The notes beneath the pieces were generated by a model. It did not search any database, had not been told where the DNA came from, and saw only the letters and a list, made by a program, of their open reading frames with translations. Below are positions 1 through 24,449 of a stretch of 36,614 nt of DNA, in pieces; the stretch's first letter is position 1; each line of letters opens with the position of its first letter. Source of the stretch: a virus; the IMG/VR virus record IMGVR_UViG_3300018026_000029; one strand, written 5' to 3'. The position numbers and the translations under genes were made by a program.

Positions 1-900
1 ACCGCCCAGGAGCTTTACCTCTCCCACTACCCCAAGGAGTGGGGGCAGGACAGGCTGGGGGACTGCTACGAGGCCGCCCTGGACAGCCTGAGGGGGAAGG
101 TCGAGGAGCACCAGGGGGAGACCAAGCAGGCAGGGGAGCGCCATGGCGGGCCAGTGCCTACAAGGGAAGAGGCGGAGAAGGTACGCAGGTTCCTTCAGGA
201 GCGGATTGGCCCCTCCGCAAAGGTGATGGTGGTAGGCTCTACGGCCGGGGGAACACAGGGCCCGGGCTCCGACATAGATATCCTCCTGATGCCCCCCGAG
301 GGGGTCAATGTCAACGACTGGTGGATTGAGGAGCCCCTGAACATAGAGCGGGCGATGACGGAGATGGGGTATAGGTTCGACCATTCCCCGATGACGGCCG
401 AGGTGCAGTGCGAGGTCTACCAGCACAAGGCAACGGGCATAGAGGTAGACCTGTTCTATGGGGAGCCGTGGAAGGGTGCCTCCATCTGGAAGCAGGGAGA
501 GGAAAACATGGACAGGAAAACAGCAGGCGAGGAGGCAAGGCTCCTGGAGTCTATCCGGGGCACGGACAAGGACATGGCTGGGTCGAAGCTGTCGGGCTTC
601 TGGCACGATGGCCCGGCGACCTGCATGGACTGCGTCCACAGGACCCCCCACTCCCAGAGGAAGGACGGCACGCAGGCAGACTCCTGCAAGCACCCCGTGG
701 TCATGGCGGACCCGGAAGTCCAGGACAAGAAGCTACCGGACGGTACTATAGAGGTCGATGCCGACGACTGGTGCAGGTTCGCCAGGAAGCCCCAGAAGGG
801 GGGCGGGGGGGAGGAGAAGGCCAGCGGCCAGCCCGAGAAGCCTCCCCGCAAGGCGAGCATCGGCTCTATCTACATGAAAGTACTGGGCTCTATGGACTAG
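1..900 (+). CDS. Pol-beta-superfamily nucleotidyltransferase (minimal NTase fold) with a C-terminal Cys/His cluster. The frame is open from nt 1, so the gene may be 5'-partial. The first in-window start is GTG at 154.
   Basis: Translation has the NTase signature 'VMVVGSTAGGTQGPGSDIDILLM' (hG[GS] followed by DxD) and a later acidic strand 'IEVDLFYGE'. Downstream is a Cys/His cluster 'CMDCVH...CKH'. Frame 1 has no stop codon between nt 1 and 154. Confidence 0.6.
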   Translation, partial: TAQELYLSHYPKEWGQDRLGDCYEAALDSLRGKVEEHQGETKQAGERHGGPVPTREEAEKVRRFLQERIGPSAKVMVVGSTAGGTQGPGSDIDILLMPPEGVNVNDWWIEEPLNIERAMTEMGYRFDHSPMTAEVQCEVYQHKATGIEVDLFYGEPWKGASIWKQGEENMDRKTAGEEARLLESIRGTDKDMAGSKLSGFWHDGPATCMDCVHRTPHSQRKDGTQADSCKHPVVMADPEVQDKKLPDGTIEVDADDWCRFARKPQKGGGGEEKASGQPEKPPRKASIGSIYMKVLGSMD

Positions 901-1309: not shown

Positions 1310-3253
1310 GTGCAAGGGCAACGGATGTCCCCGAACCTTAACCCGCTCCTGATACCCAGAAGAAGGGCAGCCCCGCCGCCCGCTGGCCCGCTGCCGGGGT
1401 TCGTGCCCCTGGGCTATGACTCCAAGACAGCATGGGAGGAAGTCTCCCTCTCGGAGCCTGCATACCACCTGCTCGGCGGCATCCTGGAGAGCGATAAGGA
1501 CATAGCGTCCTGGCTGTCCAACGAGCAGGCGGAGGACGCCCCTGCCATCATGGGCCTCCTTTCCGGCAAGAGGATAGCCGTCATAGACATGGTCCGTGTG
1601 GCCTATGACAGGAGGGGGGAGGGGCTCGGGGCCAAGGCATTCAACCGCCTCCTGTGGAGGGCCAGGCGGGCCAAGTGCGATGCCATACTCCTGCTGTCCG
1701 GCGTCTATGAGAAGCAGCGTAGGGGCTTTAACATAACCAAGTTCTGGGAGGCAAGGGGGTTCGAGAGGATAGGGCAGACAGTCGGGGCAGTGGACAAGGG
1801 CGAGAAGCCCCGTAAGCTGCCCCTTATGGTACGCTGGCTCAAGCCTCTTCCCAAGACCGCCAAGCTGATAGAGTACGGCCAGCTCAAGAACATCCTCAGC
1901 GAGCTGATGGCGGACGTGGAGGGTAACCTCCCCACGCCTGACCTCAGGATTGTAAGCCATACCCGCCCTACCTGGGGGGGAAGGTGCCTGTGGACGCTCG
2001 GCAACCCCAACACTGTAATAGAGATACAGAAGTCCGTCACCGCCGACGAGAGGAGCTTCCGGCGCATCCTGGCCCACGAGCTTTGCCACCACGAGCAGTA
2101 CCTCGTCTACTGGTCCGTGTACACCCCCCGGAACTTCAAGTTCATGACCAGACTGGAGGGGGGGCACGGCAGGGTTTTCCGCAAGATAATGGACAGGTGG
2201 AACGCCAGGCACGGCAAGGGCTTCGTCACCGTCACCTCGGACAAGGACATCCTGTACGAGTTCGAGAGCAAGCCCTTCTTCGTCTTCGTCCAGCGCTTCC
2301 TCGGCGGCCGCCCCATATGGCAGGCCTCCATCCGCCTGACCGACAGGCAGCTCAGGTTCATGTCCGGCAAGAGGCAGGGGGACTACAAGCTGGTCCAGAC
2401 CGACGACCGCAGGTTCATAAACGCCCCGGTGATAGGCTCCGGCAAGGGATGGCAGTACATCCCCGTGGAGGAGCACGAGTGGGAGGAGGCCGCCATCAGG
2501 CTATGGGAGCAGCCCGACCTGCGCATGCGGTGGGACGCCAAGCCCCCCGCCACCAAGGAGGAGGAGCAGGCGCTCCAGAGGCAGAGGGACGAGGAGGAGA
2601 GGGAGGCCCGCAGGAGGCGCTACGAGGAGCTGGCCGCCAGCATAGGGAGGCACGGTATGCCCCCCACCACGGCAGCCAGCAGGGACACCGCCCCTACCCC
2701 CGAGGTCCTGGAGGAGGCGAGGCAGATAAGGGCGGAGGAGAGGGAGGGGGACAGCAGCAGCGCCCAGCTCATGGCGGGCAACTGCGGCAATACCGCCACG
2801 GCCGCCGCCGACAGGTTCGGCTGGGACATAGAGTCGGGCATCTACATCCACGAGGGCAGGGGGCAGGACCATACCTGGAACATCCTGGCGGACGGGACGG
2901 TAGTGGACATATCCCATGACCGGTTCGGGGAGCCGGACATCGCCGTCGCCAGGCCGGGCACCACGGAGCACGCCCGCTACCACCCGTACTGCTGGGCCTA
3001 CAAGCCCCAGGAGGAGGCGGACGCCTGCCCGGTGTGCAACCCGCCTGGCGCGATGGCCAAGGATATGGCCAAGGCAGGGGACTCCCACAAGCAGACCCCG
3101 CACAGGGAGAACGAGTTCCCCGACCTGGACGAGGGCGAGGCCGTCGGGGGGTACGGTACCCAGCCCGAGTGTGTCGAGGGCAACAGGACGGGTCTGGGCA
3201 TCGAGGAGCTGGCGAGGCAGGTGGAGATGACGGAGGTGCTGGATGGGACATAG
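1310..3253 (+). CDS. Three-enzyme fusion protein: N-terminal GNAT-type acetyltransferase, SprT/WLM-like zinc metalloprotease, and C-terminal transglutaminase-like Cys-His-Asp protease core followed by a zinc ribbon.
   Basis: GNAT motif A: 'VRVAYDRRGEGLGAKAFNRLL'. SprT-like HExxH: 'RRILAHELCHHEQY'. A charged linker 'EEEQALQRQRDEEEREARRRRYEE' separates the domains. TGase-like core: 'GNCGNTATAAA' (GxCxxxA), then 'HTWNILADGTVVDISHD' (His, Asp). Zinc ribbon: 'CPVCNPPG'. Confidence 0.7.
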   Translation: MQGQRMSPNLNPLLIPRRRAAPPPAGPLPGFVPLGYDSKTAWEEVSLSEPAYHLLGGILESDKDIASWLSNEQAEDAPAIMGLLSGKRIAVIDMVRVAYDRRGEGLGAKAFNRLLWRARRAKCDAILLLSGVYEKQRRGFNITKFWEARGFERIGQTVGAVDKGEKPRKLPLMVRWLKPLPKTAKLIEYGQLKNILSELMADVEGNLPTPDLRIVSHTRPTWGGRCLWTLGNPNTVIEIQKSVTADERSFRRILAHELCHHEQYLVYWSVYTPRNFKFMTRLEGGHGRVFRKIMDRWNARHGKGFVTVTSDKDILYEFESKPFFVFVQRFLGGRPIWQASIRLTDRQLRFMSGKRQGDYKLVQTDDRRFINAPVIGSGKGWQYIPVEEHEWEEAAIRLWEQPDLRMRWDAKPPATKEEEQALQRQRDEEEREARRRRYEELAASIGRHGMPPTTAASRDTAPTPEVLEEARQIRAEEREGDSSSAQLMAGNCGNTATAAADRFGWDIESGIYIHEGRGQDHTWNILADGTVVDISHDRFGEPDIAVARPGTTEHARYHPYCWAYKPQEEADACPVCNPPGAMAKDMAKAGDSHKQTPHRENEFPDLDEGEAVGGYGTQPECVEGNRTGLGIEELARQVEMTEVLDGT

Positions 3254-5906
3254 CCCTGTTCCCGTTCCCAAGGAGGCGGTGGTGGGGCAGGTCTACCTCC
3301 TGCACTTCCTGGGGGAGGGCCTTGCCCACGGGGCGCAGGCCCGCACCCGGCACTACCTGGGGTGGTCCGAGGACGCGGAGTCCCACATAGCCCAGCACAT
3401 GCGCGGCACCTCCGGTGCCAGGCTGATGGAGGTAGTGAAGGAGCGCGGCATAACCTTCACCGTGGCAAGGGTCTGGGACAACGTCACGAGGGAGTGGGAG
3501 AGGAAGCTGAAGAACGCGGGCGGCCTGAGCCGCTGGTGCCCCGTCTGCAAGGCAGAGGGCACCATCCCGAAGTCGCGCCAGAGGACGAGGGCCGAGGTGC
3601 CTGCACCGCCCCCTGCACCGCCTACAGGCCCGGACTACGCGGGGCCCGAGGAGAGGGCGGGGGAGGACTTCGGCAAGGCCTCCGCATCTCACAGGCTCCC
3701 CAAGGGCGTGCGGGTCACCGTCAAGAGGGAGCGTCTGTCCGGCGGGAGCGACTGGTACATAGGGCACATCTGGAAGGACTACCAGTACGCGGGCCACTGC
3801 CCCGTCTATTCCGAGCTGCCGTCCAAGGCCCGGGAGGCGGCCATCGACTGGGCATGGCAGATGTTCCCGGAGGAGCACCCTGGCGGGGAAAAGGTAGCCT
3901 ATGACTACAAGCAGATGTTCCGTACCATCCTTTCCGAGCTGGGGGCCCTGGACAGGCTGGCGGCCCGCAAGGCCGACGTGGAGATAAGCGCCTGGGTAAA
4001 CTGGGCGAAGCGCGTCCTCCAGAAGCGCGACAGGATAACCTGGTTCCTCCGCCTCGGGCAGCTCAAGTGGGCGGACTACCTCGCCGATGCCTACCAGTGG
4101 TACAAGAGCCCTGGCTCCAGGGCGGAGGAGGCCAGGAAGTGGAAGGAGTGGATAAAGGCCAAGGCACAGCAGGAGGAGCCCCCTGCTACCCCGGAGGGGG
4201 CAGTCTCGACCCACATGGGGGCTGTCATGGCAAGGCTGGAGCACTACCTCAGCCTCCCCATCCCCGAGATACAGGGCACCGTCTTCCTGCGCCAGCAGCC
4301 AGGGGAGATACTGGACAGGTTCCATAGGCTGGAGAAGGACTGGAGGGACAGGCAGTCCCACCTCCTGAGGCCGCACCCGAGGGACGAGGGCAACGAGGCG
4401 GACGAGGGGGACGAGATAGTCCTGGAGTTCCCTGACGGCTGGGCATGGTGGAGGCTAGGCAGGTCTTACTGCCCCGAGGAGGCCCGTGCCATGGGCCACT
4501 GCGGGAACGAGGCCGCCGGGCCCGACAGGCCGGACGACCGTATCCTGAGCCTGAGGCATAAGGTAATCGTGAACAGGGAGACCTTCTGGGAGCCCCACCT
4601 CACGTTCATCTGGGACGATGACGGGCTGCTCGGCGAGATGAAGGGCAGGGGGAACGAGAAGCCTGCGCCGAGGTACCACCCCTATATCGTTGCCCTGCTC
4701 GAACGCAAGGACCTTGTCTTCGGGATAAAGGGCGGGGGCTACCTGCCGGGGAACAACTTCTCCCTGGAGGACCTGCCCCCGGAGCAGCAGGAGAGGGTGA
4801 AGAAGGCCAACCGCAGCCTGGTCAGCGCCTCGGAGATGTACAGCGAGTCCCGTGGCAGCATGACCGACGAGCTTCTCCAGAGGATTGCGGACAGGACCGT
4901 GCTCAGGAAGGACCAGTGGAGGCCGGAGGAGGAGGCCTTCGTGGTGGATAAGTACGCCAACCCGGAGTGGTTCATATCCACGGAGGGCAGCCCGTGGCTG
5001 GAGGCCCAGATGATGCTGGCCCGTGGGGGGTTCGGCAAGCACCCCAACCACCAGGTCGTGGAGGAGGGGATAAGGGACCTGCTCTCCGTCCTGGACGACA
5101 GGGAGAGGAGGGCGGTGCTGGAGAGGATGCCCCCGATTCCCGGGCCGCCCCTCCTCTCCCGTGCCCCCAGCCCCGATGCCCCCTGGCGCAGCGAGGACCT
5201 GCCCTCCCTGTTCATGGAGGAGAGGAACGACCATGCCCTGTGGTCGTACCTCAGGGGGGCGACACGGATACTCAGCGCCCCCGAGCAGCAGGGGGAGTAC
5301 GAGAAGCTCTGGGGGATACTGGCCGCCGCCTGGGAGGCAGGCATCACCAGGGAGATGCGCCAGGCGGCCCTGGACAGGGTAAGGGGCTTCCTGGGCAACA
5401 ACAGGCGGAACAATGTGCGCACCAACGATGCCTCCAGGGTAGCCTTCCCGGAGGCCAGCGACCCGGACTTCTGGAGCAAGCCCGTCCTGGTGGAGGTAAG
5501 TATCCAGGACGCCGTGCATCTTGCCTCCCCCTTCTCCCATGAGGAGTCAGGGTACTCCGGGGGCGAGGACACGGCCATCTACATCGACGACTACTGGGAG
5601 ACCAGCCACGGGGCCGTCCTGTACGATGCCAGCGCACCCTACAAGAAGCTCACCCTCCCCTCCGACCAGAAGAGGGACCTCGACCTCAAGATGGACAGGG
5701 AGTCCGAGGGCAGGGAGGGCAGGTCGGTCAGGCAATGGCACGAGGACTTCCTCAGGGGCCGCCCCTACGAGTACCTGCGCTGGCTGCGGGAGGAGGTACC
5801 GGCCATCTTCGAGCAGGAGATGACGCCGGAGGCATGGGACGAGGGGAAGGCCAGGGAGGCCCTGATGGTGATGCTCCCCAGCCTCCGCTCCCAGGGGAAG
5901 GGCTAG
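3243..5906 (+). CDS. 887-aa multidomain protein: N-terminal GIY-YIG-like nuclease domain, CxxC ribbon and Pro-rich linker, then copy 1 of the novel WAWW/MGHCGN module, then a ~350-aa tail of unknown function.
   Basis: GIY-YIG-like region: 'QVYLLHF...RHYLGWSED...HIAQH...REWERKLKN'. Zinc ribbon: 'CPVCK'. Linker: 'PAPPPAPPTGP'. Module hallmarks: 'YDYKQMFRT', 'DGWAWWRLGRSYCPEEARAMGHCGN', 'RILSLR', 'EPHLTFIWDDDG', 'LGEMKGRGNEKPAPRYHPYI', 'GGGYLPGNNFSLEDLP'. The ATG overlaps the previous stop by 11 nt. Confidence 0.7.
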   Translation: MGHSPVPVPKEAVVGQVYLLHFLGEGLAHGAQARTRHYLGWSEDAESHIAQHMRGTSGARLMEVVKERGITFTVARVWDNVTREWERKLKNAGGLSRWCPVCKAEGTIPKSRQRTRAEVPAPPPAPPTGPDYAGPEERAGEDFGKASASHRLPKGVRVTVKRERLSGGSDWYIGHIWKDYQYAGHCPVYSELPSKAREAAIDWAWQMFPEEHPGGEKVAYDYKQMFRTILSELGALDRLAARKADVEISAWVNWAKRVLQKRDRITWFLRLGQLKWADYLADAYQWYKSPGSRAEEARKWKEWIKAKAQQEEPPATPEGAVSTHMGAVMARLEHYLSLPIPEIQGTVFLRQQPGEILDRFHRLEKDWRDRQSHLLRPHPRDEGNEADEGDEIVLEFPDGWAWWRLGRSYCPEEARAMGHCGNEAAGPDRPDDRILSLRHKVIVNRETFWEPHLTFIWDDDGLLGEMKGRGNEKPAPRYHPYIVALLERKDLVFGIKGGGYLPGNNFSLEDLPPEQQERVKKANRSLVSASEMYSESRGSMTDELLQRIADRTVLRKDQWRPEEEAFVVDKYANPEWFISTEGSPWLEAQMMLARGGFGKHPNHQVVEEGIRDLLSVLDDRERRAVLERMPPIPGPPLLSRAPSPDAPWRSEDLPSLFMEERNDHALWSYLRGATRILSAPEQQGEYEKLWGILAAAWEAGITREMRQAALDRVRGFLGNNRRNNVRTNDASRVAFPEASDPDFWSKPVLVEVSIQDAVHLASPFSHEESGYSGGEDTAIYIDDYWETSHGAVLYDASAPYKKLTLPSDQKRDLDLKMDRESEGREGRSVRQWHEDFLRGRPYEYLRWLREEVPAIFEQEMTPEAWDEGKAREALMVMLPSLRSQGKG
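3898..4790 (+). repeat. Protein-level tandem module, copy 1 of 4 (YDYMEMF / WAWW / MGHCGN / EPHLTFI family).
   Basis: Shares an ordered set of conserved blocks with copies 2–4. It also shares short conserved DNA words with them, for example 'gactacaagcagatgttc', 'tgggcatggtgg' and 'gccatgggccactgcgggaac'. Confidence 0.6.
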
Positions 5907-8900
5907 ATGGAGAAGCTCTCCTACGACTACATGGAGATGTTCAGGGGCATACTCTCCGACTTCCCCGGCCAGCTAGAGCACCTGAGGAGGGAGGTCAAGT
6001 GGGCCAAGACCCTCCGCAAGCAGGACCGCATCACCTGGTTCCTGCGCTGGCTCAGGATAGCGGTATACGACGGCATAGCCCTTACCCTGCACGGGGACAG
6101 CGACCCGGCCAGGAGGGAGCTGTCCAGCAAGTACGCCCGCCTTATGGCCGCCGAGATGCAGCGGATAGGCTGGTCCGACAGGGACATGCTCTACATCAGC
6201 CTGCACAGCGCAAAGGACAGCATCGTACACTTCCTGGGCATCCCCTCCCCTGCCATCCAGAACCTTGTCTGGGGGAGGCAGACCCCCGCACAGCTACTAG
6301 GCAGCTTCGAGGAGGCGGAGAACGACTGGAAGGGGGCGGACAGCGACAGGGCGCTCGCCCCGCACGAGGACGACCAGGTAGCCCTGAGGTTCCCCAACGG
6401 CTGGGCGTGGTGGCTGCTGGGGAGGGGCTACTGCCCCGAGGAAGCCAAGGCGATGGGGCACTGCGGGAACGTGGCAGGGAGGGACCTGCCGGGGCAGCGC
6501 ATCCTGAGCCTCAGGCGTCCCGTCAAGGGCCCGGGCGGCCGGGAGGCCTGGGAGCCCCACCTTACCTTCATCCTGCATATTGCCCACAAGGCGCTGGGCG
6601 AGATGAAGGGGCGCGGCAACGAGAAGCCTGCCGCCAGGTACCATCCCTACATCGCTGCCCTCCTGGAGAGCCCCGTGGTGGAGGAGATATGGGGCGGGGG
6701 GTACCTGCCCGAGAACAACTTCAGCATGGCGGACCTGCCCAGGGACGTGCAGGAGGGCCTTGTCCAGAAGAAGCCCGCCCTGATGACCTTCAGGATGAGG
6801 CTGGCGAAGGAGGGTGCCCAGGGGCCGAGCGAGGAGCTGGTCAGGGACATCACCTGGAAGCTGAGCATGGGGGCTGACGACTGGTCGCCCAGGCTGCGGG
6901 CGTTCAGGATAGGCACCTGGAAGAGCGCCATAGACTTCGCGGGGCAGTTCGGCACGGAGGAGACAAGGCAGGTAATCCAGCTTGCGCTGGACGGGGAGGG
7001 CATACCGACCTCCTCCGATATGGGGGAGGACGAGTATGTCCTGGAGGCCCTGAGGGCCCTCTCCCCCGACAACCTGAAGAGGGTAGTAGACTACACCCGC
7101 TGGACGGACCCCAAGGCGCTGGAGTGGTGGGCCAAGAACCGGGGCAACCCGGATACCCCCGAGGGCATCGCCCAGATGATAGGGAGGATGGACCTTCCCA
7201 ATATCAGGACGAACCTCTATAGCTGCTGGTACAGGGGGATGAAGAACGGCACCGTCTTCCAGCTCCTCCATGCCTGCTGCAACGAGATAGAGAAGCTAAA
7301 CCCCGTCACCCCGGCAAGCACGGAGCTGGCATGGGGAGACCCGTCCCCCAGGGCCGTCCAGACATATACCCGCAGCCCGGACAGGCTCCTCCTGGCAACG
7401 CCCCTCTGGGAGACCGTGCCCCTGGAGTTCGCCGCAGCCGTGGCCGACGACGAGGAGAAGGACCCCAGGGAGATGCCCTACAGGTACGAGGAATGGTCGG
7501 GGCTAGAGCTGAAGGCTCCCCCGGACGGCTGGGGGGACTTCAGCAAGAGGACGGTGAACGAGGAGGCCAGGTTCTTCTTCCATACCGGGGACGGTATACC
7601 GGAGCAGCTTGCCAGCCTGGATATCGCCAAGGTAGCCTATGACTACATGGAGATGTTCCGTGGCTTCCTGGCAGACTTCCCGAGGTTCCAGCCCACGGTG
7701 ACCAACACCATAAGCTGGTGCAAGCGGGTCCTCAGGAAGCGCGACCGCATCACCTGGTGGCTGAGGCAGATGCGCCTCTTCTGGTACAACCTGGTAGCCG
7801 ACAAGGCCTCGGCCTGGCGCTATGCCCCTGCGACAAACTGGCCCGCCACGGAGGTTCCGGCCGACAACACGGCCATGATAGCGCTGGCAGACAAGTACCA
7901 GGCGCTCTTCGACAGGGAGGTGCGCTCCCTGGGTCCCCTAGGGCTCGCTGACCGGTCGAACTACCTGGACCTGGGGATGTTCGCCAACTCCAACCAGAGC
8001 ACGATGGAGCACCTGCTCAGCCTGCCCGTCCCAGAGATACAGAACCTCGTGTGGGAGAGGCAGACCAAGCAGGAGCTTTTCAGGACCCTCCTTAACTACG
8101 AGACGAAGTGGAAGGAGGAGAGCAAGGGGGTCCTCCGCCCCCGCCCAGGGGACAGGCCTGTCATTACCTTCGGGGACGGATGGGCATGGTGGCTCCTCGA
8201 CCGTGGGTACTGCGAGGAGGAGGCCCGTGCCATGGGCCACTGCGGGAACGTCAACGGGCAGAACCGCCCCTACGAGCGCATCCTCAGCCTGCGGAAGTCG
8301 GTGCGCAGGGGGGGCACGGAGTATTACGAGCCGCACCTGACGTTCATCCTCGACACCCGCGACAGCTCCCTGGGGGAGATGAAGGGCAAGGGTAACAACA
8401 AGCCCGCCCCCCAGTACCACCCCTATATCCTCAGGCTCCTGGAGAGCGACATAGTGAGCAAGGTGAAGGGCGGGGGCTACCTGCCGGAGCATAACTTCAG
8501 GCTGGGGGACCTCAGCGAGGAGCAGCGGGAGGAGCTTGCCCAGAGGAAGCCCTCCATGGCCGCCTTCTATATCCGCCTCAAGAGGGAGGGCCCCAGCCCG
8601 GCCCTGATAGCCGACATCGGCAGCGCCTTGCAGGTAGGGGGCTGGGACCCCGACCTCCAGGGGTACGTCATCAGGCAGTGGGAGAACATGTCCTCCCTGG
8701 CCGAGGACATAGGGAACGACACGGCGAAGTGGATAGCCAAGGTGGTGGGGGGCGGGGAGTTCAACCGACATGATAGCCCAGACTTCGAGTACGGCGACCG
8801 CTCGGAGGCCATGAAGATGGCACTGGGTGCCTGCTCCGACAAGACCCTTGACCTTGTGGTCAGGTGCCTTGCCTACAAGTACCCCACCAACCTGGTGGAG

Positions 8901-11375
8901 TGGCTGGAGCACAACAACACCGACTACAGCGGGCAGGCCACCGGGTTTATGGAGAGGGGGTTCGGCGACTCCCAGGCCCGCAAGTGGCTCTCCAAGCTCA
9001 ACCTGAAGATAGACGGGGTCCTGGGCGATGACGATGACATCATAGACTTTATCGAGTTCGCAAGCCTGGACGACGAGGAGAGCACCCTCCTTAACGCCTG
9101 GACAGACGCCACGCAGTCCGGGACCGAGATAGACATGAATAGGGACTTCGAGCACGCTGCCAACGACCTCCTGGGCACGGAGTTCCCCTGGGGTACCATG
9201 CTGAGGAGGAAGGGAAAGTACTTCTGGGACGACCCCATCTATGAGTTCATGCCCCTGGCCAAGGCTATCGAGGTAGCAGACAGCGGCGAGGACAGCGCCA
9301 GCAGCTACATGGAGGCCAACGGCAGGGACGACAGCGAGGAGTTCAGGCTGAAGGTTGACGAGCCCTACTACGGATACAACGGCTGGGACGAGTCTGCCGC
9401 CGACGAGCGGATAAGCGAGGGGTTCAGCTTCAAGGAGGAGCCCGAGCCCGAGCCTCCCAAGAAGGCCAGGAGGCCCAGGAAGCCCAGGGCCCCCAAGCCA
9501 AAGAAAGTGATGTCGGCGCTCGGCGACATCGCAGGGAAGTCGGCGCTCGGCGGCATGAAGCTGGCCTACGACTACATGGAGATGTTCCGTGGGCTGCTCC
9601 AGGACTTCCCGGGCCGCAAGGAGACGATAGACGGGGAGATAGCCTGGTGCAAGCGGGTCCTCAAGAAGAGGGACCGCATCACCTGGTGGCTGAGATGGTT
9701 CAGGCTCTTCGAGTACCATGGCATACGCCACAACCCCATGTACTACTGGAGCAAGTACTCCACCACCGAGGTAGAGGAGCAGCTCCCGCAGAACATCACC
9801 CCCGCTATCCGAGAGAGGCTGGCCGCCCTTTCCAGGAAGTACGACAAGGCCTACACGGACGAGATGCACAGGCTGGGCTGGACCGACTTCCGGGGGGGGC
9901 ACTACCCCGACTCCACCAGGCATACGGTAGAGCACTACCTGTCCCTGCCCGTCCCGGAGATACAGGGCCTCGTCTGGGAGAGGCAGCAGCCCTACGAGCT
10001 GTTCATGCTCCTGATGGGCCTGGAGGAGAAGTGGAAGGAGAGGACCAAGGGGGTGGTCGCCCCCCACGAGGGGGACAAGCCGGTCCTGACCTTCGGCGGC
10101 GGGTGGGCATGGTGGCTGCTGGACAGAGGATACTGCGAGGACGAGGCAAGGGCCATGGGGCACTGCGGCAATGTCGCCGGGCAGTACGATGACGACCAGC
10201 GCATCCTCAGCCTGCGCCAGTCGGTGAGGAGGGGCAGCGAGGAGTTCTACGAGCCGCACCTCACCTTCATCCTGCATACCGGGGACAACTCCCTGGGGGA
10301 GATGAAGGGGAAGGGCAATGCCAAGCCCACGGCAAGGTACCACCCCTACATCGTCAAGCTCCTGGAGAGCGGCCTTGTCGATAGGGTAAGGGGCGGAGGC
10401 TACCTTCCCGAGCACAACTTCAGCATGACGGACCTCCCGCAGGCGGAGCAGGACAGGCTGGTGGCCCTGAAGCCCTCCCTTATGTCCTTCGCCTACCGCC
10501 TGGGCAAGGAGGGGATTACCAAGGGGCTGCTCTCCGACCTGTCCAGGGTGCTGTCCCCGATGGAGGAGGGAAAGCCCTATCCCGTCAAGGACTGGTACAT
10601 GCCCAAGCGCCGTGGCTTTCTCATCAACTCCTACACGCTCAAGGAGTTCACAGAGGAGTTCGGGGACGAGGAAAGCCAGGATGCGGCCGATGTCCTGGAG
10701 GGCCGTACCGCGATATCCACCGGCATCGGGGGAGGGGAGGGGTACTGGGCGGGGTGGGGGGGCACAGGGGGAGTGGACCCCCTTGAGGACACCCTGTCGG
10801 CCATAGGCATGACGACCCTTATGATGGCGGAGAAGTACTACAGGGGGCTCTCCAAGGAGCTGCTGCCGGACACCCACCTTGTCTGCACCTATGACCAGGC
10901 CCGGCGCACGTCCACGGGGCCGGTGGCCGGAATCCTCAGCTTCATATCCCAGAACAGGCTCCTGGCGGAGTCCAACAGCATCACCGAGGCATGGAAGAGG
11001 GGCAGGAACGCCGGGATAAAGGCCAGCATGCTCAAGGAGCTTGACAGTGCCCTGGACTCCATCCTGGACCGCCGCCTGGAGGACGGCACCATCTTCTACC
11101 GCCTCGACCCCGCAAGGTGGAACTCCGACATCGAGCACATCCTGCCCCTGGAGGAGGCCGTGGCGATAGCCGACCAGGGGCAGACCTTCGAGGATTTCTT
11201 CGAGGGGTGGGACCAGAGCGTCTGGACCCCCGTCATAGAGTTCGAGGTCCCCCCGCAGGGGTGGCCGGGGTGGGACGCCCAGGCGGCAGAGCTTGCCCTG
11301 AGGGAGCATTACTCCTCCGGGCAGGAGGAAGAAGGCAAGAAGCCTAAGCCTAGGGGGAGGAGGAAGGCCAGGTAA
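5907..11375 (+). CDS. 1822-aa giant protein carrying copies 2, 3 and 4 of the WAWW/MGHCGN module. Each copy has a putative papain/transglutaminase-like Cys-His-Asp core. Linker regions of unknown function separate the copies.
   Basis: Three reiterations of the blocks 'YDYMEMFRG..DFPG', 'KRDRITWWLRW', 'GWAWWLL.RGYC.EEA.AMGHCGNV', 'RILSLR', 'EPHLTFIL', 'LGEMKGKGN.KP', 'YHPYI', 'GGGYLPE.NF'. The ATG follows the upstream TAG directly, with GGAAGGG 4 nt upstream. The TAA stop overlaps the next ATG (TAATG). Confidence 0.75.
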   Translation: MEKLSYDYMEMFRGILSDFPGQLEHLRREVKWAKTLRKQDRITWFLRWLRIAVYDGIALTLHGDSDPARRELSSKYARLMAAEMQRIGWSDRDMLYISLHSAKDSIVHFLGIPSPAIQNLVWGRQTPAQLLGSFEEAENDWKGADSDRALAPHEDDQVALRFPNGWAWWLLGRGYCPEEAKAMGHCGNVAGRDLPGQRILSLRRPVKGPGGREAWEPHLTFILHIAHKALGEMKGRGNEKPAARYHPYIAALLESPVVEEIWGGGYLPENNFSMADLPRDVQEGLVQKKPALMTFRMRLAKEGAQGPSEELVRDITWKLSMGADDWSPRLRAFRIGTWKSAIDFAGQFGTEETRQVIQLALDGEGIPTSSDMGEDEYVLEALRALSPDNLKRVVDYTRWTDPKALEWWAKNRGNPDTPEGIAQMIGRMDLPNIRTNLYSCWYRGMKNGTVFQLLHACCNEIEKLNPVTPASTELAWGDPSPRAVQTYTRSPDRLLLATPLWETVPLEFAAAVADDEEKDPREMPYRYEEWSGLELKAPPDGWGDFSKRTVNEEARFFFHTGDGIPEQLASLDIAKVAYDYMEMFRGFLADFPRFQPTVTNTISWCKRVLRKRDRITWWLRQMRLFWYNLVADKASAWRYAPATNWPATEVPADNTAMIALADKYQALFDREVRSLGPLGLADRSNYLDLGMFANSNQSTMEHLLSLPVPEIQNLVWERQTKQELFRTLLNYETKWKEESKGVLRPRPGDRPVITFGDGWAWWLLDRGYCEEEARAMGHCGNVNGQNRPYERILSLRKSVRRGGTEYYEPHLTFILDTRDSSLGEMKGKGNNKPAPQYHPYILRLLESDIVSKVKGGGYLPEHNFRLGDLSEEQREELAQRKPSMAAFYIRLKREGPSPALIADIGSALQVGGWDPDLQGYVIRQWENMSSLAEDIGNDTAKWIAKVVGGGEFNRHDSPDFEYGDRSEAMKMALGACSDKTLDLVVRCLAYKYPTNLVEWLEHNNTDYSGQATGFMERGFGDSQARKWLSKLNLKIDGVLGDDDDIIDFIEFASLDDEESTLLNAWTDATQSGTEIDMNRDFEHAANDLLGTEFPWGTMLRRKGKYFWDDPIYEFMPLAKAIEVADSGEDSASSYMEANGRDDSEEFRLKVDEPYYGYNGWDESAADERISEGFSFKEEPEPEPPKKARRPRKPRAPKPKKVMSALGDIAGKSALGGMKLAYDYMEMFRGLLQDFPGRKETIDGEIAWCKRVLKKRDRITWWLRWFRLFEYHGIRHNPMYYWSKYSTTEVEEQLPQNITPAIRERLAALSRKYDKAYTDEMHRLGWTDFRGGHYPDSTRHTVEHYLSLPVPEIQGLVWERQQPYELFMLLMGLEEKWKERTKGVVAPHEGDKPVLTFGGGWAWWLLDRGYCEDEARAMGHCGNVAGQYDDDQRILSLRQSVRRGSEEFYEPHLTFILHTGDNSLGEMKGKGNAKPTARYHPYIVKLLESGLVDRVRGGGYLPEHNFSMTDLPQAEQDRLVALKPSLMSFAYRLGKEGITKGLLSDLSRVLSPMEEGKPYPVKDWYMPKRRGFLINSYTLKEFTEEFGDEESQDAADVLEGRTAISTGIGGGEGYWAGWGGTGGVDPLEDTLSAIGMTTLMMAEKYYRGLSKELLPDTHLVCTYDQARRTSTGPVAGILSFISQNRLLAESNSITEAWKRGRNAGIKASMLKELDSALDSILDRRLEDGTIFYRLDPARWNSDIEHILPLEEAVAIADQGQTFEDFFEGWDQSVWTPVIEFEVPPQGWPGWDAQAAELALREHYSSGQEEEGKKPKPRGRRKAR
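5919..6740 (+). repeat. Protein-level tandem module, copy 2 of 4.
   Basis: 'LSYDYMEMFRGILSDFPG ... NGWAWWLLGRGYCPEEAKAMGHCGNVAGRD ... RILSLRRPV ... EPHLTFILHIAHKALGEMKGRGNEKPAARYHPYI ... GGGYLPENNFSMADLP'. Confidence 0.6.
7633..8520 (+). repeat. Protein-level tandem module, copy 3 of 4.
   Basis: 'VAYDYMEMFRGFLADFP ... DGWAWWLLDRGYCEEEARAMGHCGNVNGQ ... RILSLRKSV ... EPHLTFILDTRDSSLGEMKGKGNNKPAPQYHPYI ... GGGYLPEHNFRLGDLS'. Confidence 0.6.
9562..10450 (+). repeat. Protein-level tandem module, copy 4 of 4.
   Basis: 'LAYDYMEMFRGLLQDFPG ... GGWAWWLLDRGYCEDEARAMGHCGNVAGQY ... RILSLRQSV ... EPHLTFILHTGDNSLGEMKGKGNAKPTARYHPYI ... GGGYLPEHNFSMTDLP'. Confidence 0.6.
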
Positions 11376-14300
11376 TGGCACAGGACCTAACAGCCATCAG
11401 CACGCCCGGCACGACCACCCAGGGCCCCGCGTTCAAGGCATGGTTCCGGAACTCCGTGGTGAGGAACCCGGACGGCAGCCCGAGGCCTGTCTACCATGGA
11501 AGCACGCACAGCTTCGAGGCCTTCAGCCTGAAGCCCGGCAACCCCGAGAACTGGTACGGCAAGGCGCTCTACTTCACCGACAGCCCCGAGGACGTGGGGA
11601 GGAACTACGCCACCCCCGACTCGCCGGACCTCAGGGCCCGCATCGACAAGCGCACCGAGCAGCTCATGGACAGGCTGGTGGACGAGCTGGAGCAGGAGCT
11701 TGGCGAGGCGCTGAACTGGAACGACCCCCGCAAGGATAGGCTCTTCCAGGACGCCAAGTCCCAGGCCACCAAGGAGCTTATGGGCCCTGGTGCCATATCC
11801 TACAAGCTGTACCTGCGCATCGAGCGGCCGGTAGTTATCAGGCAGGGCGGCGGCACCTACTTCGAGATAGACTACAACGAGAGGACCGGGAGGGAGACCG
11901 GCTCGGGCATGCGCCTGTACAGGGCGGTGATGAAGGCGGCAGGGCAGCTCAACCTCCCGAACAGCGACGAGATATGGCGGCAGTCGGTATCGGCAGACGA
12001 GGGGATGACGGAGGGCTTTACCGCCCAGCAGTTCGACGAGAACCTCCGCCACTCCGATGCCATGATGGAGGCACGGGACTGGGACGCCACCAACGAGGGC
12101 GAGTTCCTCTCCCTTGTCTACCGCCTGGCCGGATACGACGGCATCATCATGGAGGACGCCGGGGCCACCTTCCACAACATGGGCATCCCCCCCGGCACCA
12201 GGCACTATATCATCTGGAACCCCCGCCAGGCCAAGTCCGCCATTGGCAACACGGGCACGTGGAGCACCCGCACCCCCAGGCTGACGGCAGGCTGGGAGGA
12301 GGACGAGGGGGACTACGGGGTAGAGGACTACCCCCAGTGCCTCGGGGACTACGAGTTCAGGACGACATGCGTGTCCGAGGGCACCGGGGAGCACATCCAG
12401 GAGATGCTGGACAATGCCAAGGACTGCGGCTACAGCGAGGTAAAGAGGCACTGCGAGGGGCTGAGGCCGTGGGAGAAGGAGAACGGCTACGCCCCGGACG
12501 GCAGCCGTAAGGGGCTTACCCTGCGGCACGACTGGGCCGTGAGGTACGGCAGGGGCACCTACAGGAGGATGCCCTGCTACTTTGTCGTGTGGAGCGGCAT
12601 CGAGCATGTCTGGACGAGGAAGGGTGCCGGGGGGCAGGAAGGCTGGGAGGACTGGGCAGGGCGGACGTCAAGCAAGGGTGCTGGGAAGTCTGCCGGGAAG
12701 CCAGGCAAGGCAGGCCTCCTGTACCACGGCACCACGAAGGCCAACCTCCCGTCCATCATGTCCGAGGGTCTCAAGCCCACGGTGGGGTGCTATGCCGAGC
12801 TATGGCATGGCAGGGACCATAACGACACGAGCAAGTCCAACAACCTGGCCCCCGTGGTGTTTGCCGCCCCCAGGGAGCACCTCGACGACTGCCTGCTGGC
12901 CATCTTCGCTGCCCTCAGCAAGGACTTCCCCAGGACCTCCACGGAGCAGTTCTTCGACAATGCCGTCCTCCTGGAGCTTCCCGCCGACCAGTTCACAAGG
13001 AACAGGTGGAAGCGCCCGCCGAGAAATATGAAGCATGTGGAGTCGAGGGACTACTACAGCACCAGCCCTGTCAGGCCTATCCGGGCGATAACAGGGGAGG
13101 AGCTGCGGGGGTTCGCAGGGTATGCCTACCAGAGCGCCCGCCAGGAGTGGTTCGGGGCATACGACCCGGAGAGCCCTGGGCGCAGGCTCGCGGCGGGGAA
13201 GGAATGGCCCCCCTGGATTGGGGTGGACCTGGACGGCACGCTCGCCGAGGAGCAGAGCCCGTTCGACCCGCTGACCATCGGCAGGCCAGTCCCGGAGATG
13301 GTGAGGAAGGTCAGGCAGGCATTGGAGGACGGCGTGGAGGTACGGGTCTTCACCGCCCGGCTTGCAGACAAGGGGCTCAGGGACAGGATTAAGCAGGCCA
13401 TCAGGGACTATACCAGGGAGCACGTCGGCAGGGAGCTGGACAGCACCAACGAGAAGGACCCTGGCCTCAGGGAGATATGGGACGACAAGGCCAGGAGGGT
13501 GAGGAAGGACGAGGGCACCTTCGCCCTGCGGGGCACCGAGCGCCAGCCCTCCCGGGCCGACAGGTACCTGCGCGAGATGTGGAGCCCCGGCGACGGCGCT
13601 TGGTTCGAGTACCACTGCTGGGAAGACCCCAAGTCCTGCGATGCCAACCTGTGGTACCATTCGCACCAGAGGGTCACCGTGCTCGGCAAGGCGGACGCGG
13701 ACGGCTGGCACAAGGGCTGGGATGGCAGCATGATGAAGGACCGTGCGGAGGCGGGTGCCCCGAGGGCGTATACGGTGAGATTCCAGGACGGGTACGAACG
13801 CACCGCCGGGGAAGACGAGCTGATGACCAGCCGGAGGGGATTCTACCGCCCCGACCCGCCAAGGCCGCCCAAGGCGTTCGCCCTGCGGGGGAGCATTATC
13901 GTCGAGGAGCCCCTCTACCACGTCACCTTCAGGAAGAACCTGAGGAGAATCCTCAGGGAGGGGCTCCGTGGCGACCAGGAGCCTAACTGGCCCTTCGACT
14001 CGTCCCCCGGCAACGTGTACCTGATGACCAGGGACGGGCTGGACTTCTGGATGGACAGGTACGAGGACCTGCTCCGCGAGATGGGGAGCAGGTCAAAGCT
14101 GGTGGTTCTGGAGGTATCCCCCAAGGGGCTTATGTTCCAGGAGGATATACAGGGCACCGAGGACTCGGGGACAGAGGCATACCGTACCGGCTTCGTCCCT
14201 CCGGGGAACATACATGCCAACTGGCGGAGGACTGCCTCGCTTGGCAAGGCGGCCTTCAGGAGGCGTGCCCCCCTCTACCATGTGACCTTCTCGAAGAGCG

Positions 14301-14596
14301 TCCCGGCCATCCTGCGGGATGGCCTGGTGCCGAAGACATACCCCAAGCTCCCCCCCAGCCAGTGGGAGAAAGGGGTATACCTTACCAGCAAGGAGGGCAT
14401 ACCGTTCTGGGAGAACATCCTGCGGGATGACATGAAGTGGGGGGGGTTCCACGACCAGCTCTCCGTCCTGGAGGTCTCGCCTGAGGGGCTGGAGCTGGAG
14501 TACGACCGGCAGGGGACAGGGGACTCTGGCGCGAAGGCGTACATTACCCCAAGGGTCCCGCCAGAGAATATCTCCGTCCTGCGGGGGCCTGTCTAG
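11375..14596 (+). CDS. 1073-aa protein: N-terminal H-Y-E-class (PARP/diphtheria-toxin-like) ADP-ribosyltransferase domain, one HGT-type Tpt1/KptA-like domain, a HAD-superfamily phosphatase domain, and two tandem HVT-type Tpt1/KptA C-lobe-like domains.
   Basis: ART domain: 'VYHGSTHSFEAF' (H41), 'WYGKALYFTDS' (Y61/Y66), 'TYFEIDYNE' (E164). The H–Y–E spacing matches PARP and DT catalytic cores. Tpt1-like blocks 'LLYHGTTKANLPSIMSEGLKP...VVF..VLLELP', 'LYHVTFRKNLRRILREGL...NVYLMT...KLVVLEVSPKGL...VPPGNI' and 'LYHVTFSKSVPAILRDGL...GVYLTS...LSVLEVSPEGL...VPPENI' align to KptA 'LYHGT...GL...HYVHLS...PVILTVKA...VWLT'. HAD motif I: 'WIGVDLDGTLAEE'. HAD motif II: 'VRVFTAR'. Confidence 0.75.
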   Translation: MAQDLTAISTPGTTTQGPAFKAWFRNSVVRNPDGSPRPVYHGSTHSFEAFSLKPGNPENWYGKALYFTDSPEDVGRNYATPDSPDLRARIDKRTEQLMDRLVDELEQELGEALNWNDPRKDRLFQDAKSQATKELMGPGAISYKLYLRIERPVVIRQGGGTYFEIDYNERTGRETGSGMRLYRAVMKAAGQLNLPNSDEIWRQSVSADEGMTEGFTAQQFDENLRHSDAMMEARDWDATNEGEFLSLVYRLAGYDGIIMEDAGATFHNMGIPPGTRHYIIWNPRQAKSAIGNTGTWSTRTPRLTAGWEEDEGDYGVEDYPQCLGDYEFRTTCVSEGTGEHIQEMLDNAKDCGYSEVKRHCEGLRPWEKENGYAPDGSRKGLTLRHDWAVRYGRGTYRRMPCYFVVWSGIEHVWTRKGAGGQEGWEDWAGRTSSKGAGKSAGKPGKAGLLYHGTTKANLPSIMSEGLKPTVGCYAELWHGRDHNDTSKSNNLAPVVFAAPREHLDDCLLAIFAALSKDFPRTSTEQFFDNAVLLELPADQFTRNRWKRPPRNMKHVESRDYYSTSPVRPIRAITGEELRGFAGYAYQSARQEWFGAYDPESPGRRLAAGKEWPPWIGVDLDGTLAEEQSPFDPLTIGRPVPEMVRKVRQALEDGVEVRVFTARLADKGLRDRIKQAIRDYTREHVGRELDSTNEKDPGLREIWDDKARRVRKDEGTFALRGTERQPSRADRYLREMWSPGDGAWFEYHCWEDPKSCDANLWYHSHQRVTVLGKADADGWHKGWDGSMMKDRAEAGAPRAYTVRFQDGYERTAGEDELMTSRRGFYRPDPPRPPKAFALRGSIIVEEPLYHVTFRKNLRRILREGLRGDQEPNWPFDSSPGNVYLMTRDGLDFWMDRYEDLLREMGSRSKLVVLEVSPKGLMFQEDIQGTEDSGTEAYRTGFVPPGNIHANWRRTASLGKAAFRRRAPLYHVTFSKSVPAILRDGLVPKTYPKLPPSQWEKGVYLTSKEGIPFWENILRDDMKWGGFHDQLSVLEVSPEGLELEYDRQGTGDSGAKAYITPRVPPENISVLRGPV

Positions 14597-14618
14597 CCGT
14601 TCCCTCTAATAGAGACAC

Positions 14619-21053: not shown

Positions 21054-21055
21054 CC

Positions 21056-21451
21056 CTAGGCAAGGTGCCTATGTGCCAGTGCTTCTAGCATCCTCTCAAA
21101 GTCCCCGTCAGGAAACGCCCCCCGTGCCCGGTTGTATATCCAGCATGTAAGTCTTACATTTTCCGGGGAATAATCCCCTGTCTGGGATATGCGGTCTAAG
21201 GAAGGGCTGAACGAGTTGCTCCTGCTTCCCTTCCCCCCGTTTATATGGAGTTCCAGGGGTATCCCAGTTACCTCGCATACGCCTTTCTTGAGCTTCTCCT
21301 CAATCCAGGCCTGGGTGATAGAGCACTTCACCTTTGCCTTTGCCGCCCGCTTTCTGGCATTGCAAAGAAGGAAGGATGCACGCCCATTTGTGGTCGTATA
21401 GTATTTGGAGAACTTCTTGTAGTTTAAGACCCTTTGCTTTTCTGTCGGCAT
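21056..21451 (-). CDS. Free-standing HNH-family (homing-type) endonuclease in a low-GC island.
   Basis: '...LHINGGKGSRSNSFSPSLDRISQTGDYSPENVRLTCWIYN...' resembles the phage HNH_3/AP2-type core 'H...SLDRID..GY...N'. Local GC is clearly lower than the flanks. The ATG is preceded by AGGGGG. The stop lies 2 nt from the convergent giant-gene stop. Confidence 0.55.
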   Translation of the reverse strand: MPTEKQRVLNYKKFSKYYTTTNGRASFLLCNARKRAAKAKVKCSITQAWIEEKLKKGVCEVTGIPLELHINGGKGSRSNSFSPSLDRISQTGDYSPENVRLTCWIYNRARGAFPDGDFERMLEALAHRHLA

Positions 21452-21486
21452 ATCTACCCCCTATTAGGAGATAGATAGTTTAGAGA

Positions 21487-24294: not shown

Positions 24295-24449
24295 GGCGTT
24301 CTCCTTGAGGTGATAAGCTCCACCGAGTCGTTGGCGACATCGAAGGCGATGGCCACCACCGGCTCGTAGTCCCCTGTGTCCGGGTCGAATGCCCTTACCT
24401 CCAGGCCAGGGTAGTACGACAGCATCCTGACTATGTCCGATGCCGTCAT
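24276..24449 (-). CDS. Unlisted 57-aa ORF ('MTASDIVRMLSYYPGLEVRAFDPDTGDYEPVVAIAFDVANDSVELITSRRTPCSEKP') that fills the gap between the CCA gene and the membrane-protein gene.
   Basis: I translated it by hand from the minus strand. Its ATG overlaps the CCA-gene TGA (ATGA). GGAGG lies 4 nt upstream. Composition is balanced. It is too short for the ORF track. Confidence 0.35.
   Translation of the reverse strand: MTASDIVRMLSYYPGLEVRAFDPDTGDYEPVVAIAFDVANDSVELITSRRTPCSEKP

Follow-up and report, generated by a model that had tools for sequence, protein, structure and literature searches.

The 36,614-nucleotide (nt) stretch of viral DNA in IMG/VR record IMGVR_UViG_3300018026_000029, here called the window, encodes a protein segment that recurs four times in tandem across two adjacent open reading frames (ORFs), p1 and p2. 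What is the repeated unit, and what might it do? The initial annotation described a novel module of ~290 amino acids (aa), probably a new Cys-His-Asp enzyme of the papain or transglutaminase type. Our analysis shows that the region contains four ancient paralogues, each full length, that belong to a single family of huge-phage proteins. Conservation across this family removes the proposed triad, and the core of the module probably belongs to the PcfJ-domain superfamily as a divergent branch, with a predicted fold that moderately resembles those of acetyltransferases.

Four full-length paralogues in tandem

The blocks YDY, RITW, GWAWW, GHCGN, RILSLR, EPHLTFI, LGEMKG, YHPYI, and GGGYLP are each found four times and in identical order, as first described. 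One set lies in p1 (887 aa; 3243 to 5906) and three in p2 (1,822 aa; 5907 to 11375). The YDY block is located at nt 3900 in p1 and at nt 5922, 7638, and 9567 in p2, in units that start at nt 3891, 5907, 7626, and 9555, respectively. When aligned, the four modules (~300 aa) display 45 to 55% aa identity with ~100 invariant columns. The repeat is beyond chance, as homologues from outside the window match it with E values down to 1e-115. At the DNA level the repeat is reduced to blocks of 64 to 83% identity, with spacings of 1962, 1776 to 1779, and 1923 nt, which agrees with the annotated divergence of the copies.

The homology extends beyond the module. The 270 to 360 aa downstream of each module display weak but significant similarity among copies 2 to 4, and a profile made solely from the tails of outside homologues matches the tail of every copy (E values of 9e-12 to 6e-21). 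The outside homologues are mostly stand-alone proteins of ~550 to 650 aa in which the module is N-terminal. Taken together, the homology of the tails and the stand-alone homologues indicate that the repeating unit is a whole protein of 574 to 671 aa; the ~290-aa segment originally proposed is well aligned but represents only part of it.

Each unit comprises a helical N-terminal domain of ~150 aa in which one His is invariant, an alpha/beta core (~105 to 150 aa), and a fast-evolving, mostly helical tail (~270 to 360 aa). Identity among the paralogues is 55 to 66% in the core, 37 to 54% in the helical N-terminal domain, and 22 to 28% in the tail. A close relative is present on a 6.5-kb contig, L013 (JGI 3300009629), which encodes an orthologue of unit 1 (69% identity), a fusion of units 3 and 4 (70% identity), and an orthologue of the ART-PolyVal gene that follows the array in the window, and which lacks unit 2. 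The tails of the window are 72 to 73% identical to those of their L013 orthologues. The paralogues are thus old and individually maintained, and differ mainly in their tails. With three copies in L013 and four in the window, copy number also varies between related phages. The gradient of divergence along the unit fits a constant catalytic core combined with paralogue-specific recognition of targets or partners.

Two features of the unit borders were observed. A low-complexity linker rich in Pro, Lys, and Arg, EPEPEPPKKARRPRKPRAPKPKK, lies between units 3 and 4 (window 9380 to 9560; p2 aa ~1160 to 1217). The sequence K(V/L)(A/S)YDY opens every unit, and could mark a putative processing site.

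The two ORFs, correctly identified as adjacent, are in fact nearly continuous. They share the same frame and are separated by a single TAG (5904 to 5906) with an ATG immediately after it (5904 to 5909 in all). TAG is the most frequent stop in this high-GC window, ending 9 of 16 large ORFs, and a tRNA scan detected no tRNA, and therefore no suppressor tRNA, in the window. We thus read the TAG between p1 and p2 as a real stop; translational coupling of p1 and p2 is possible. Recoding or read-through had been considered as an explanation for the in-frame TAG and was rejected on these same grounds. The hypothetical read-through product would be a four-unit protein of ~2,710 aa.

The plus-strand frames have a GC content at third codon positions (GC3) of 0.89 (0.895 in p1). 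Long antisense ORFs, such as that at 7938 to 11381 on the minus strand, were rejected as genes: their GC content peaks at codon position 1, mirroring the plus-strand GC3, and they are therefore GC-shadow artefacts. Scans for promoters, terminators, and Rfam families found nothing above chance inside the array.

A large protein family in phages with large genomes

An exhaustive hidden Markov model search of 1.84 billion representatives identified 3,041 (clusters at 50% identity) with E values of 1e-3 or lower, 1,475 of them at 1e-30 or lower. A word-indexed search with a 313-aa query, which listed relatives of up to 552 aa, identified more than 247 proteins, all unnamed and none with a Pfam domain on the module. 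The sole precomputed Pfam entry among these, Nitroreductase on P0025, is unrelated to the module. Giant fused relatives were recovered only by the exhaustive search of representatives. No match was found in Pfam, NCBIfam, PHROGs, or PADLOC for the repeat regions of p1 and p2 or for the separate tails, nor in PDB sequences with the module, family, and PcfJ profiles, and the literature on the motif HCGN/GHCGN contained nothing relevant.

All genomic contexts inspected were phage-like contigs, several of 300 to 550 kb (up to 549 kb). The Salicola jumbo phage SCTP-2 (440 kb) is the only deposited phage with a copy, gp31. A tblastn search of plasmids with the module gave no match, as did a megablast comparison of 25 kb of the window with phage genomes. 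The family thus comprises ~3,000 clusters in large and huge phages only, and naming it would annotate thousands of phage proteins now listed as hypothetical.

Reiteration is found elsewhere in the family. At least 12 representative proteins contain two modules, locus L018 contains two modules, and locus L003 contains two adjacent module genes. The other loci and proteins examined harbor one to three units, with three in the closest relative, L013, and four in the window. In L018, a viral contig (IMGVR_UViG_3300044713_000276), the region 5669 to 17921 presents two tandem modules with five ART-PolyVal domains flanking them, all within 12 kb.

Conserved residues and the proposed catalytic triad

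Conservation was counted over 107 homologues, with residues numbered as in copy 2 (unit 2). H108, W168, E179, and G187 are invariant, and C176, H185, C186, N188, S201, R203, T220, E232, K234, N238, and K240 are conserved in at least 94%; all four copies of the window retain every one of these positions. The invariance or near-invariance of E179, H185, C186, N188, S201, R203, T220, E232, K234, and N238 supports the initial suggestion that the module is probably an enzyme.

The specific chemistry first proposed, with the MGHCGN Cys as nucleophile, the EPHLTFI His as base, and a downstream acid, fares differently. C186 itself suits a nucleophile, being conserved in 106 of the 107 homologues within a Gly-rich motif, but its partners are variable. 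At the position of the EPHLTFI His (H218), only 62 of the 107 homologues have His, and the others have Val, Ser, Tyr, Phe, or Ala; as the Pro and Thr that flank it are conserved, this variability does not stem from misalignment. Position 224, the acidic residue further downstream, is Asp in 61 homologues, His in 20, and Asn in 11. These substitutions remove the Cys-His-Asp triad. In addition, PcfJ proteins have Tyr or Phe at the position equivalent to H218. In the AlphaFold2 model, C186 sits in the loop after helix 177-183 and not at the N terminus of a long nucleophile helix, and no match to a papain, transglutaminase, NlpC/P60, or arylamine N-acetyltransferase (NAT) fold was obtained. The CGN...HTW...D core at the C terminus of the neighboring 647-aa protein, a YunG-type domain, speaks for the parallel that had been drawn, but the module and YunG/transglutaminase-like domains have in common no more than the short string CGN next to a conserved Cys. 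The secondary-structure context is different, and the module has neither a conserved His/Asp partner nor a fold match to these domains. A papain- or transglutaminase-like mechanism can thus be considered extremely unlikely.

A phosphatase-like P-loop of the form H-C-x5-R, suggested by HCGNVAGR in copy 2, was also rejected, as the Arg is conserved neither in the family nor in the other copies.

Probable relationship of the module core to PcfJ

In a relaxed Pfam scan of the 107 members, the weak match that recurred most often was PcfJ (PF14284), with three members at E values of 1 or lower (best, 0.0087). In the window, neither p1 nor p2 matched PF14284 at E values of 0.1 or lower, nor did they reach its gathering threshold of 25 bits; true PcfJ sequences score up to 151 bits. 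PcfJ sequences were collected from pCF10, from plasmids of Bacteroides, Clostridium, and Streptococcus, and from 61 further PcfJ-domain proteins of up to 307 aa identified with a 175-aa query, and the final profile contained 34 sequences, all of which pass PF14284. As the PcfJ profile was diversified, the hhalign probability of its match to the module rose from 4% to 19% and then to 73% (E value, 3e-5; 97 columns). The value of 4% came from a first profile made of Enterococcus sequences only and was judged misleadingly low. A separate hhalign run gave 69.5% (E value, 4.2e-5), and the matches span 89 to 97 columns.

The residues in register (module/PcfJ) are E179/E, H185-C186/H-C, R203/R, T220/T, E232/Q, G235/G, and N238/N. 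The order of elements found in PcfJ of Enterococcus faecalis pCF10 (PF14284) is also kept: a Glu in a helix, an (H)H-C loop, an IxFxR strand, a PxxT strand, and a (Q/E)xxGxxN strand-loop. The module core is probably a distant member, or divergent branch, of the PcfJ-domain superfamily. As none of the window copies attains a Pfam PcfJ score, the match indicates relatedness at the superfamily level and not membership of PF14284. The novelty originally claimed for the family therefore holds with respect to Pfam, NCBIfam, PHROGs, PADLOC, and PDB, but is qualified for its core, which profile-profile comparison links to PcfJ at ~70% probability.

The phage family is nevertheless distinct from PcfJ. 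It has invariant features of its own (H108, W168, C176, S201, K234, K240, GGGY, and N271), its N-terminal helical domain differs, and it carries a tail of 270 to 350 aa; it occurs in huge phages and not on plasmids. Both are found on mobile elements, and both lack an assigned function and a solved structure; for PcfJ, our searches of the literature and PDB yielded neither a structure nor a functional study. In a conserved pair seen on four unrelated plasmids, PcfJ lies directly 3' of a PcfK/AcrIIA9-family gene (Table 1). PcfK corresponds to the AcrIIA9 anti-CRISPR family (PMC6739104). No PcfK match was found among the window proteins scanned. By analogy, the pairing with PcfK may associate the PcfJ superfamily with anti-defence, and we count it as support for the effector function proposed below. 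Conversely, the link to the phage family would offer a first hypothesis on the structure and mechanism of PcfJ, a common gene of plasmids that travels with AcrIIA9/PcfK.

Predicted fold of the core

The AlphaFold2 model of the copy 2 module has a predicted local distance difference test score (pLDDT) of 93.5 and a predicted template modelling score (pTM) of 0.80; the model of the full 574-aa unit 2 has a pLDDT of 86.7. In the model of unit 2, a helical bundle (aa 1 to 145) is followed by an alpha/beta domain (aa 150 to 300) and a mostly helical tail. The alpha/beta domain is predicted to consist of two strands (157-161 and 167-171), two helices (177-183 and 189-192), a meander of three strands (197-207, 213-224, and 229-235), a further helix (243-254), and a short strand (260-261).

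The predicted core fold is closest to those of the GNAT, MYST, and Hat1 acetyltransferases, a moderate and purely structural match. Among the Foldseek matches, only the MYST enzyme Sas3 exceeded a probability of 0.9. The predicted order of elements, a strand, two helices, the meander, a helix, and a strand, would fit the beta1-alpha1-alpha2-beta2-beta3-beta4-alpha3-beta5 arrangement of Hat1 and MYST enzymes (Tip60, KAT8/MOF, Sas3, and Esa1). The GNAT fold as a whole continues through alpha4 to beta6 and has a splay between beta4 and beta5. In GNATs, the pyrophosphate loop of motif A, located between beta4 and alpha3, is Q/R-x-x-G-x-G/A, and the acceptor site is formed by the alpha1-alpha2 loop. 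In the module, the strand equivalent to beta4 is followed by the loop E232-M-K-G235-R-(G/A)237-N238, an E-x-x-G-x-G/A sequence in which position 237 is Gly in 64 homologues and Ala in 28. Judged on the model, the Gly/Ala alternation at 237 and the location of the His-Cys pair in the loop equivalent to alpha1-alpha2 would fit a GNAT-like donor site.

The differences are also clear. The module displays no sequence or profile similarity to GNAT, MYST, or Hat1 proteins, only about half of it aligns, and the canonical Gln/Arg of GNAT motif A is replaced by Glu. The catalytic Cys and Glu of MYST enzymes are sited elsewhere than in the alpha1-alpha2 loop, unlike the invariant His-Cys of the module. 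The arylamine N-acetyltransferase-like activity that had been listed among the possibilities is thus matched in that the predicted fold is acetyltransferase-like, but this fold differs from that of arylamine NAT.

The same secondary structure could be read in another manner, as the alpha-beta-beta-beta-alpha-beta core of a metal-dependent PD-(D/E)xK-type nuclease. Helix 177-183, strands 197-207, 213-224, and 229-235, helix 243-254, and strand 260-261 fit such a core, in which E179 of the first helix, P217-H218 of the second strand (in place of PD), and E232-x-K234 of the third strand would form the active site, and the 13 residues between P-H and E-x-K fit the spacing of the motif. Nucleases are also frequent in polyvalent proteins (PMC5512222). 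On the other hand, the residue at the required Asp position is His in 58% of homologues and Asp in none, and the invariant His-Cys would be left without a role. As PcfJ has Q-x-(Q/R/K/Y/H) in place of ExK, the motif is not ancestral. We regard a nuclease as very unlikely.

A further possibility is that this PcfJ-like scaffold supports a thiol- or metal-dependent hydrolase (protease, deamidase, or amidase) that uses no donor of the coenzyme A (CoA) type. Either C186 would be a nucleophile activated by H185 and E179, or H108, C176, H185, and C186 would bind a catalytic Zn or Fe. The invariance or near-invariance of H108, E179, H185, and C186 is consistent with this, and C176, conserved in 97% of homologues, is replaced by Asp in two of them, a swap typical of metal ligands. 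PcfJ displays a similar constellation, with an upstream conserved His-Asp, then a Glu, and then His-His-Cys, and the absence of a sequence link to GNATs points in the same direction. Adjacent residues such as His-Cys, however, rarely ligate the same metal ion, which weakens the metal-site version, and C176 has no counterpart in PcfJ, so that a four-ligand site would not be ancestral. Peptidases are common in polyvalent proteins (PMC5512222). Such a hydrolase is possible, and we consider it somewhat unlikely.

Fusion to and proximity with polyvalent effector domains

The genes around the array, which are tightly packed and co-directional (Table 1), and the fusions found in relatives point to a common context. 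In giant relatives of 1,900 to 3,100 aa, the module is fused to the same domains that neighbor it in the window. Six proteins are fusions of the module with ART-PolyVal (P0128, P0129, P0130, P0203, P0228, and P0240). Further partners in giant proteins, among which P0124 is also listed, are canonical GNAT, NTP_transf_2, GIY-YIG, 2H, and Nuc_deoxyri_tr2 domains. The contig encoding P0203 harbors a syntenic array of InPase, GIY-YIG, GNAT-SprT-YunG, ART-PolyVal, and module-ART-GNAT. The 647-aa protein of the window (1310 to 3253) has the same three-domain architecture as the protein upstream of the module in that contig. This GNAT-SprT-YunG protein may act as the peptidase that processes the products of the array.

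Residues 1247 to 1346 of the 2,294-aa protein P0240, which precede its module, weakly match Pfam GIY-YIG (E value, 6e-4, below the cut-off), and the N terminus of p1 has no direct Pfam match. The GIY-YIG-like domain of p1 is divergent, with a CxxC at its end. The product of the gene at 11375 to 14596 includes three stretches with LYH(G/V)T... that bear a weak resemblance to Tpt1/KptA, PARP, and DUF7002, and the protein appears to contain internally repeated ART-like modules.

Polyvalent proteins, found in phages and conjugative elements, are defined by just such a mixture of disparate effector domains, typically with ART and a zincin-like metallopeptidase; Iyer, Burroughs, Anand, de Souza, and Aravind (2017) propose that these effectors are delivered, or act, at the onset of invasion and are often processed by an in-built metallopeptidase (PMC5512222). 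The window likewise combines a nucleotidyltransferase, GNAT-SprT-YunG, a GIY-YIG-like domain, the four units, and ART-PolyVal. The likeness to polyvalent systems thus lies in the combination of ART-PolyVal, SprT/zincin-like peptidase, GNAT, pol-beta-type nucleotidyltransferase, 2H, InPase, and GIY-YIG, with the module both fused to these domains and neighboring them, and with fusion and fission varying between relatives. What differs is that none of the Pfam models originating from the 2017 study (LPD, PBECR, MuF, and others) recognizes the module, and that the four-fold reiteration of the unit exceeds that of any locus or protein examined here.

This context also bears on whether the units are enzymes at all. 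They could be nonenzymatic virion or structural paralogues, such as a scaffold or components like those of the internal-head inner body, with a structural Zn site and with the GNAT-like fold as a binding scaffold; catalytically inactive GNAT-like folds do exist. Tandem paralogues, long helical regions, and specificity for huge phages are consistent with such a role, and one homologue adjoins a terminase gene. However, more than 100 homologues that are 31 to 48% identical (one, 70%) share ~15 invariant or nearly invariant polar residues, which exceeds the need of a structural site, the recurrent fusion partners are enzymes, and most contexts are outside structural gene modules. A structural role is therefore improbable in our view.

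A proposed function

Tentatively, and as something short of an expectation, we prefer the following function: the unit would be a PcfJ-superfamily effector enzyme with a GNAT-like core, which transfers an acyl or other group from a CoA-type donor, and whose tails select targets. Together with the other polyvalent effectors, the units would be deployed against the host, probably at an early stage of infection. The donor bound by the core would be of the thioester or nucleotide type, with acyl-CoA the most likely; the putative binding site is the strand-loop-helix E232-x-K-G235-x-G/A237-N238, similar to motif A of GNATs. The donor group would be transferred to a host macromolecule. Catalysis would rely on the invariant Glu179 and on His185-Cys186, at the equivalent of the GNAT alpha1-alpha2 acceptor loop, possibly via an acyl-Cys intermediate. 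The diverged tails would direct the four paralogues to different targets.

Several observations weigh against this proposal. When the core was compared by hhalign with canonical GNATs from the same phage proteins, the probability was 0.2%, and neither Pfam nor PDB sequences provided a sequence link to any GNAT family. The motif A-like loop starts with Glu and not with Gln/Arg, and some PcfJ members lack the Gly. A metal site composed of H108, C176, H185, and C186 is equally conceivable, as in the hydrolase discussed above. The PcfJ link, at ~70% probability, is not decisive, and since PcfJ has no known function, the link adds no chemistry. ART-PolyVal is found within 10 kb of the module in 5 of 18 loci, an association in about a quarter of the loci, and many homologues lie among unrelated hypothetical genes. 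Neither a portal nor MuF nor any other sign of packaging was found in the window, and we found no evidence for injection or early expression.

A bolder, and rather doubtful, extension would be that PcfJ and the phage family together constitute an unrecognized GNAT-fold superfamily with a Glu/His-Cys center, thiol-assisted transferases that differ from canonical GNATs and act as counter-defence effectors. The tandem arrays of huge phages, with their diverged C termini, would then serve to retarget a single chemistry. The system is not categorically new; it is a large phage-specific branch of a known but uncharacterized superfamily, located inside known polyvalent arrays. What is added here is the assignment of a fold that was not expected, together with a number of tandem copies that is unusually high. 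Four conserved paralogues together with a varying copy number could represent a natural experiment on how the target range of one effector chemistry diversifies. This should be of interest to those studying counter-defence in phages and plasmids, and PcfJ gains a testable hypothesis.

Features of the array and its surroundings

Table 1. Coordinates of the repeat array, its neighbors in the window, and the PcfK genes that precede PcfJ on four plasmids
Feature	Sequence	Coordinates	Strand	Evidence or remark
Nucleotidyltransferase (NTP_transf_2)	Window	154..900	+	Pfam, E 2e-8
647-aa protein: GNAT (weak), SprT-like metallopeptidase, YunG	Window	1310..3253	+	Pfam
ORF p1 (887 aa): GIY-YIG-like N-terminal domain, then unit 1; ends with TAG	Window	3243..5906	+	
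GIY-YIG-like domain (p1 aa 8-105)	Window	3264..3557	+	43% identity to P0240 residues 1247-1346
Unit 1 module: helical N-terminal domain and alpha/beta core	Window	3891..4826	+	
Unit 1 PcfJ-like/GNAT-like core (candidate); GHCGN 4494-4508	Window	4404..4712	+	Aligned to copy 2 aa 154-257
Unit 1 diverged C-terminal tail	Window	4827..5903	+	Homologue-tail profile, E 9e-12; 73% identity to L013 orthologue
ORF p2 (1,822 aa): units 2, 3, and 4 in one polypeptide	Window	5907..11375	+	
Unit 2 module (modelled sequence)	Window	5907..6812	+	AlphaFold2 pLDDT 93.5, pTM 0.80
Unit 2 PcfJ-like/GNAT-like core (candidate; aa 154-257); GHCGN 6456-6470	Window	6366..6677	+	
Unit 2 tail, mainly helical	Window	6813..7625	+	
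Unit 3 module; core 8145-8453, GHCGN 8235-8249	Window	7626..8570	+	
Unit 3 tail and Pro/Lys/Arg-rich linker ahead of unit 4	Window	8571..9554	+	
Unit 4 module; core 10068-10376, GHCGN 10158-10172	Window	9555..10490	+	
Unit 4 tail; stop overlaps start of next gene (TAATG)	Window	10491..11372	+	
1,073-aa polyvalent protein: ART-PolyVal, Tpt1/PARP-like stretches, PNK/HAD-like region	Window	11375..14596	+	Pfam, PHROGs
2,144-aa protein, C-terminal GP88 domain; last co-directional gene of the array	Window	14619..21053	+	Pfam, E 1e-29
PcfK/Cas9 inhibitor AcrIIA9 gene preceding PcfJ	L009	17208-17984		
PcfK/Cas9 inhibitor AcrIIA9 gene preceding PcfJ	L010	1815-2225		
PcfK/Cas9 inhibitor AcrIIA9 gene preceding PcfJ	L011	915-1493		
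PcfK/Cas9 inhibitor AcrIIA9 gene preceding PcfJ	L012	1413-1967		

Rest of the window

The coding strand switches and the GC skew reverses at ~21000 to 21500. All genes examined between 154 and 21053 are on the plus strand, and all large ORFs examined between 21487 and 36541 are on the minus strand. The latter include a gene resembling those for CCA-adding enzyme/poly(A) polymerase (24446 to 25894) and a gene for a collagen-repeat protein (30731 to 31954, minus strand). At 34769 to 36541 (minus strand), the window encodes a protein of 590 aa that contains the shoulder and repeat domains of Major Vault Protein. This vault-like protein is 39 to 40% identical to regions of the uncultured huge phages LR756500, LR756501, and LR756503 (462 to 735 kb). 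With a vault-like gene that matches the 735-kb phage LR756501, the window looks like part of a huge phage.

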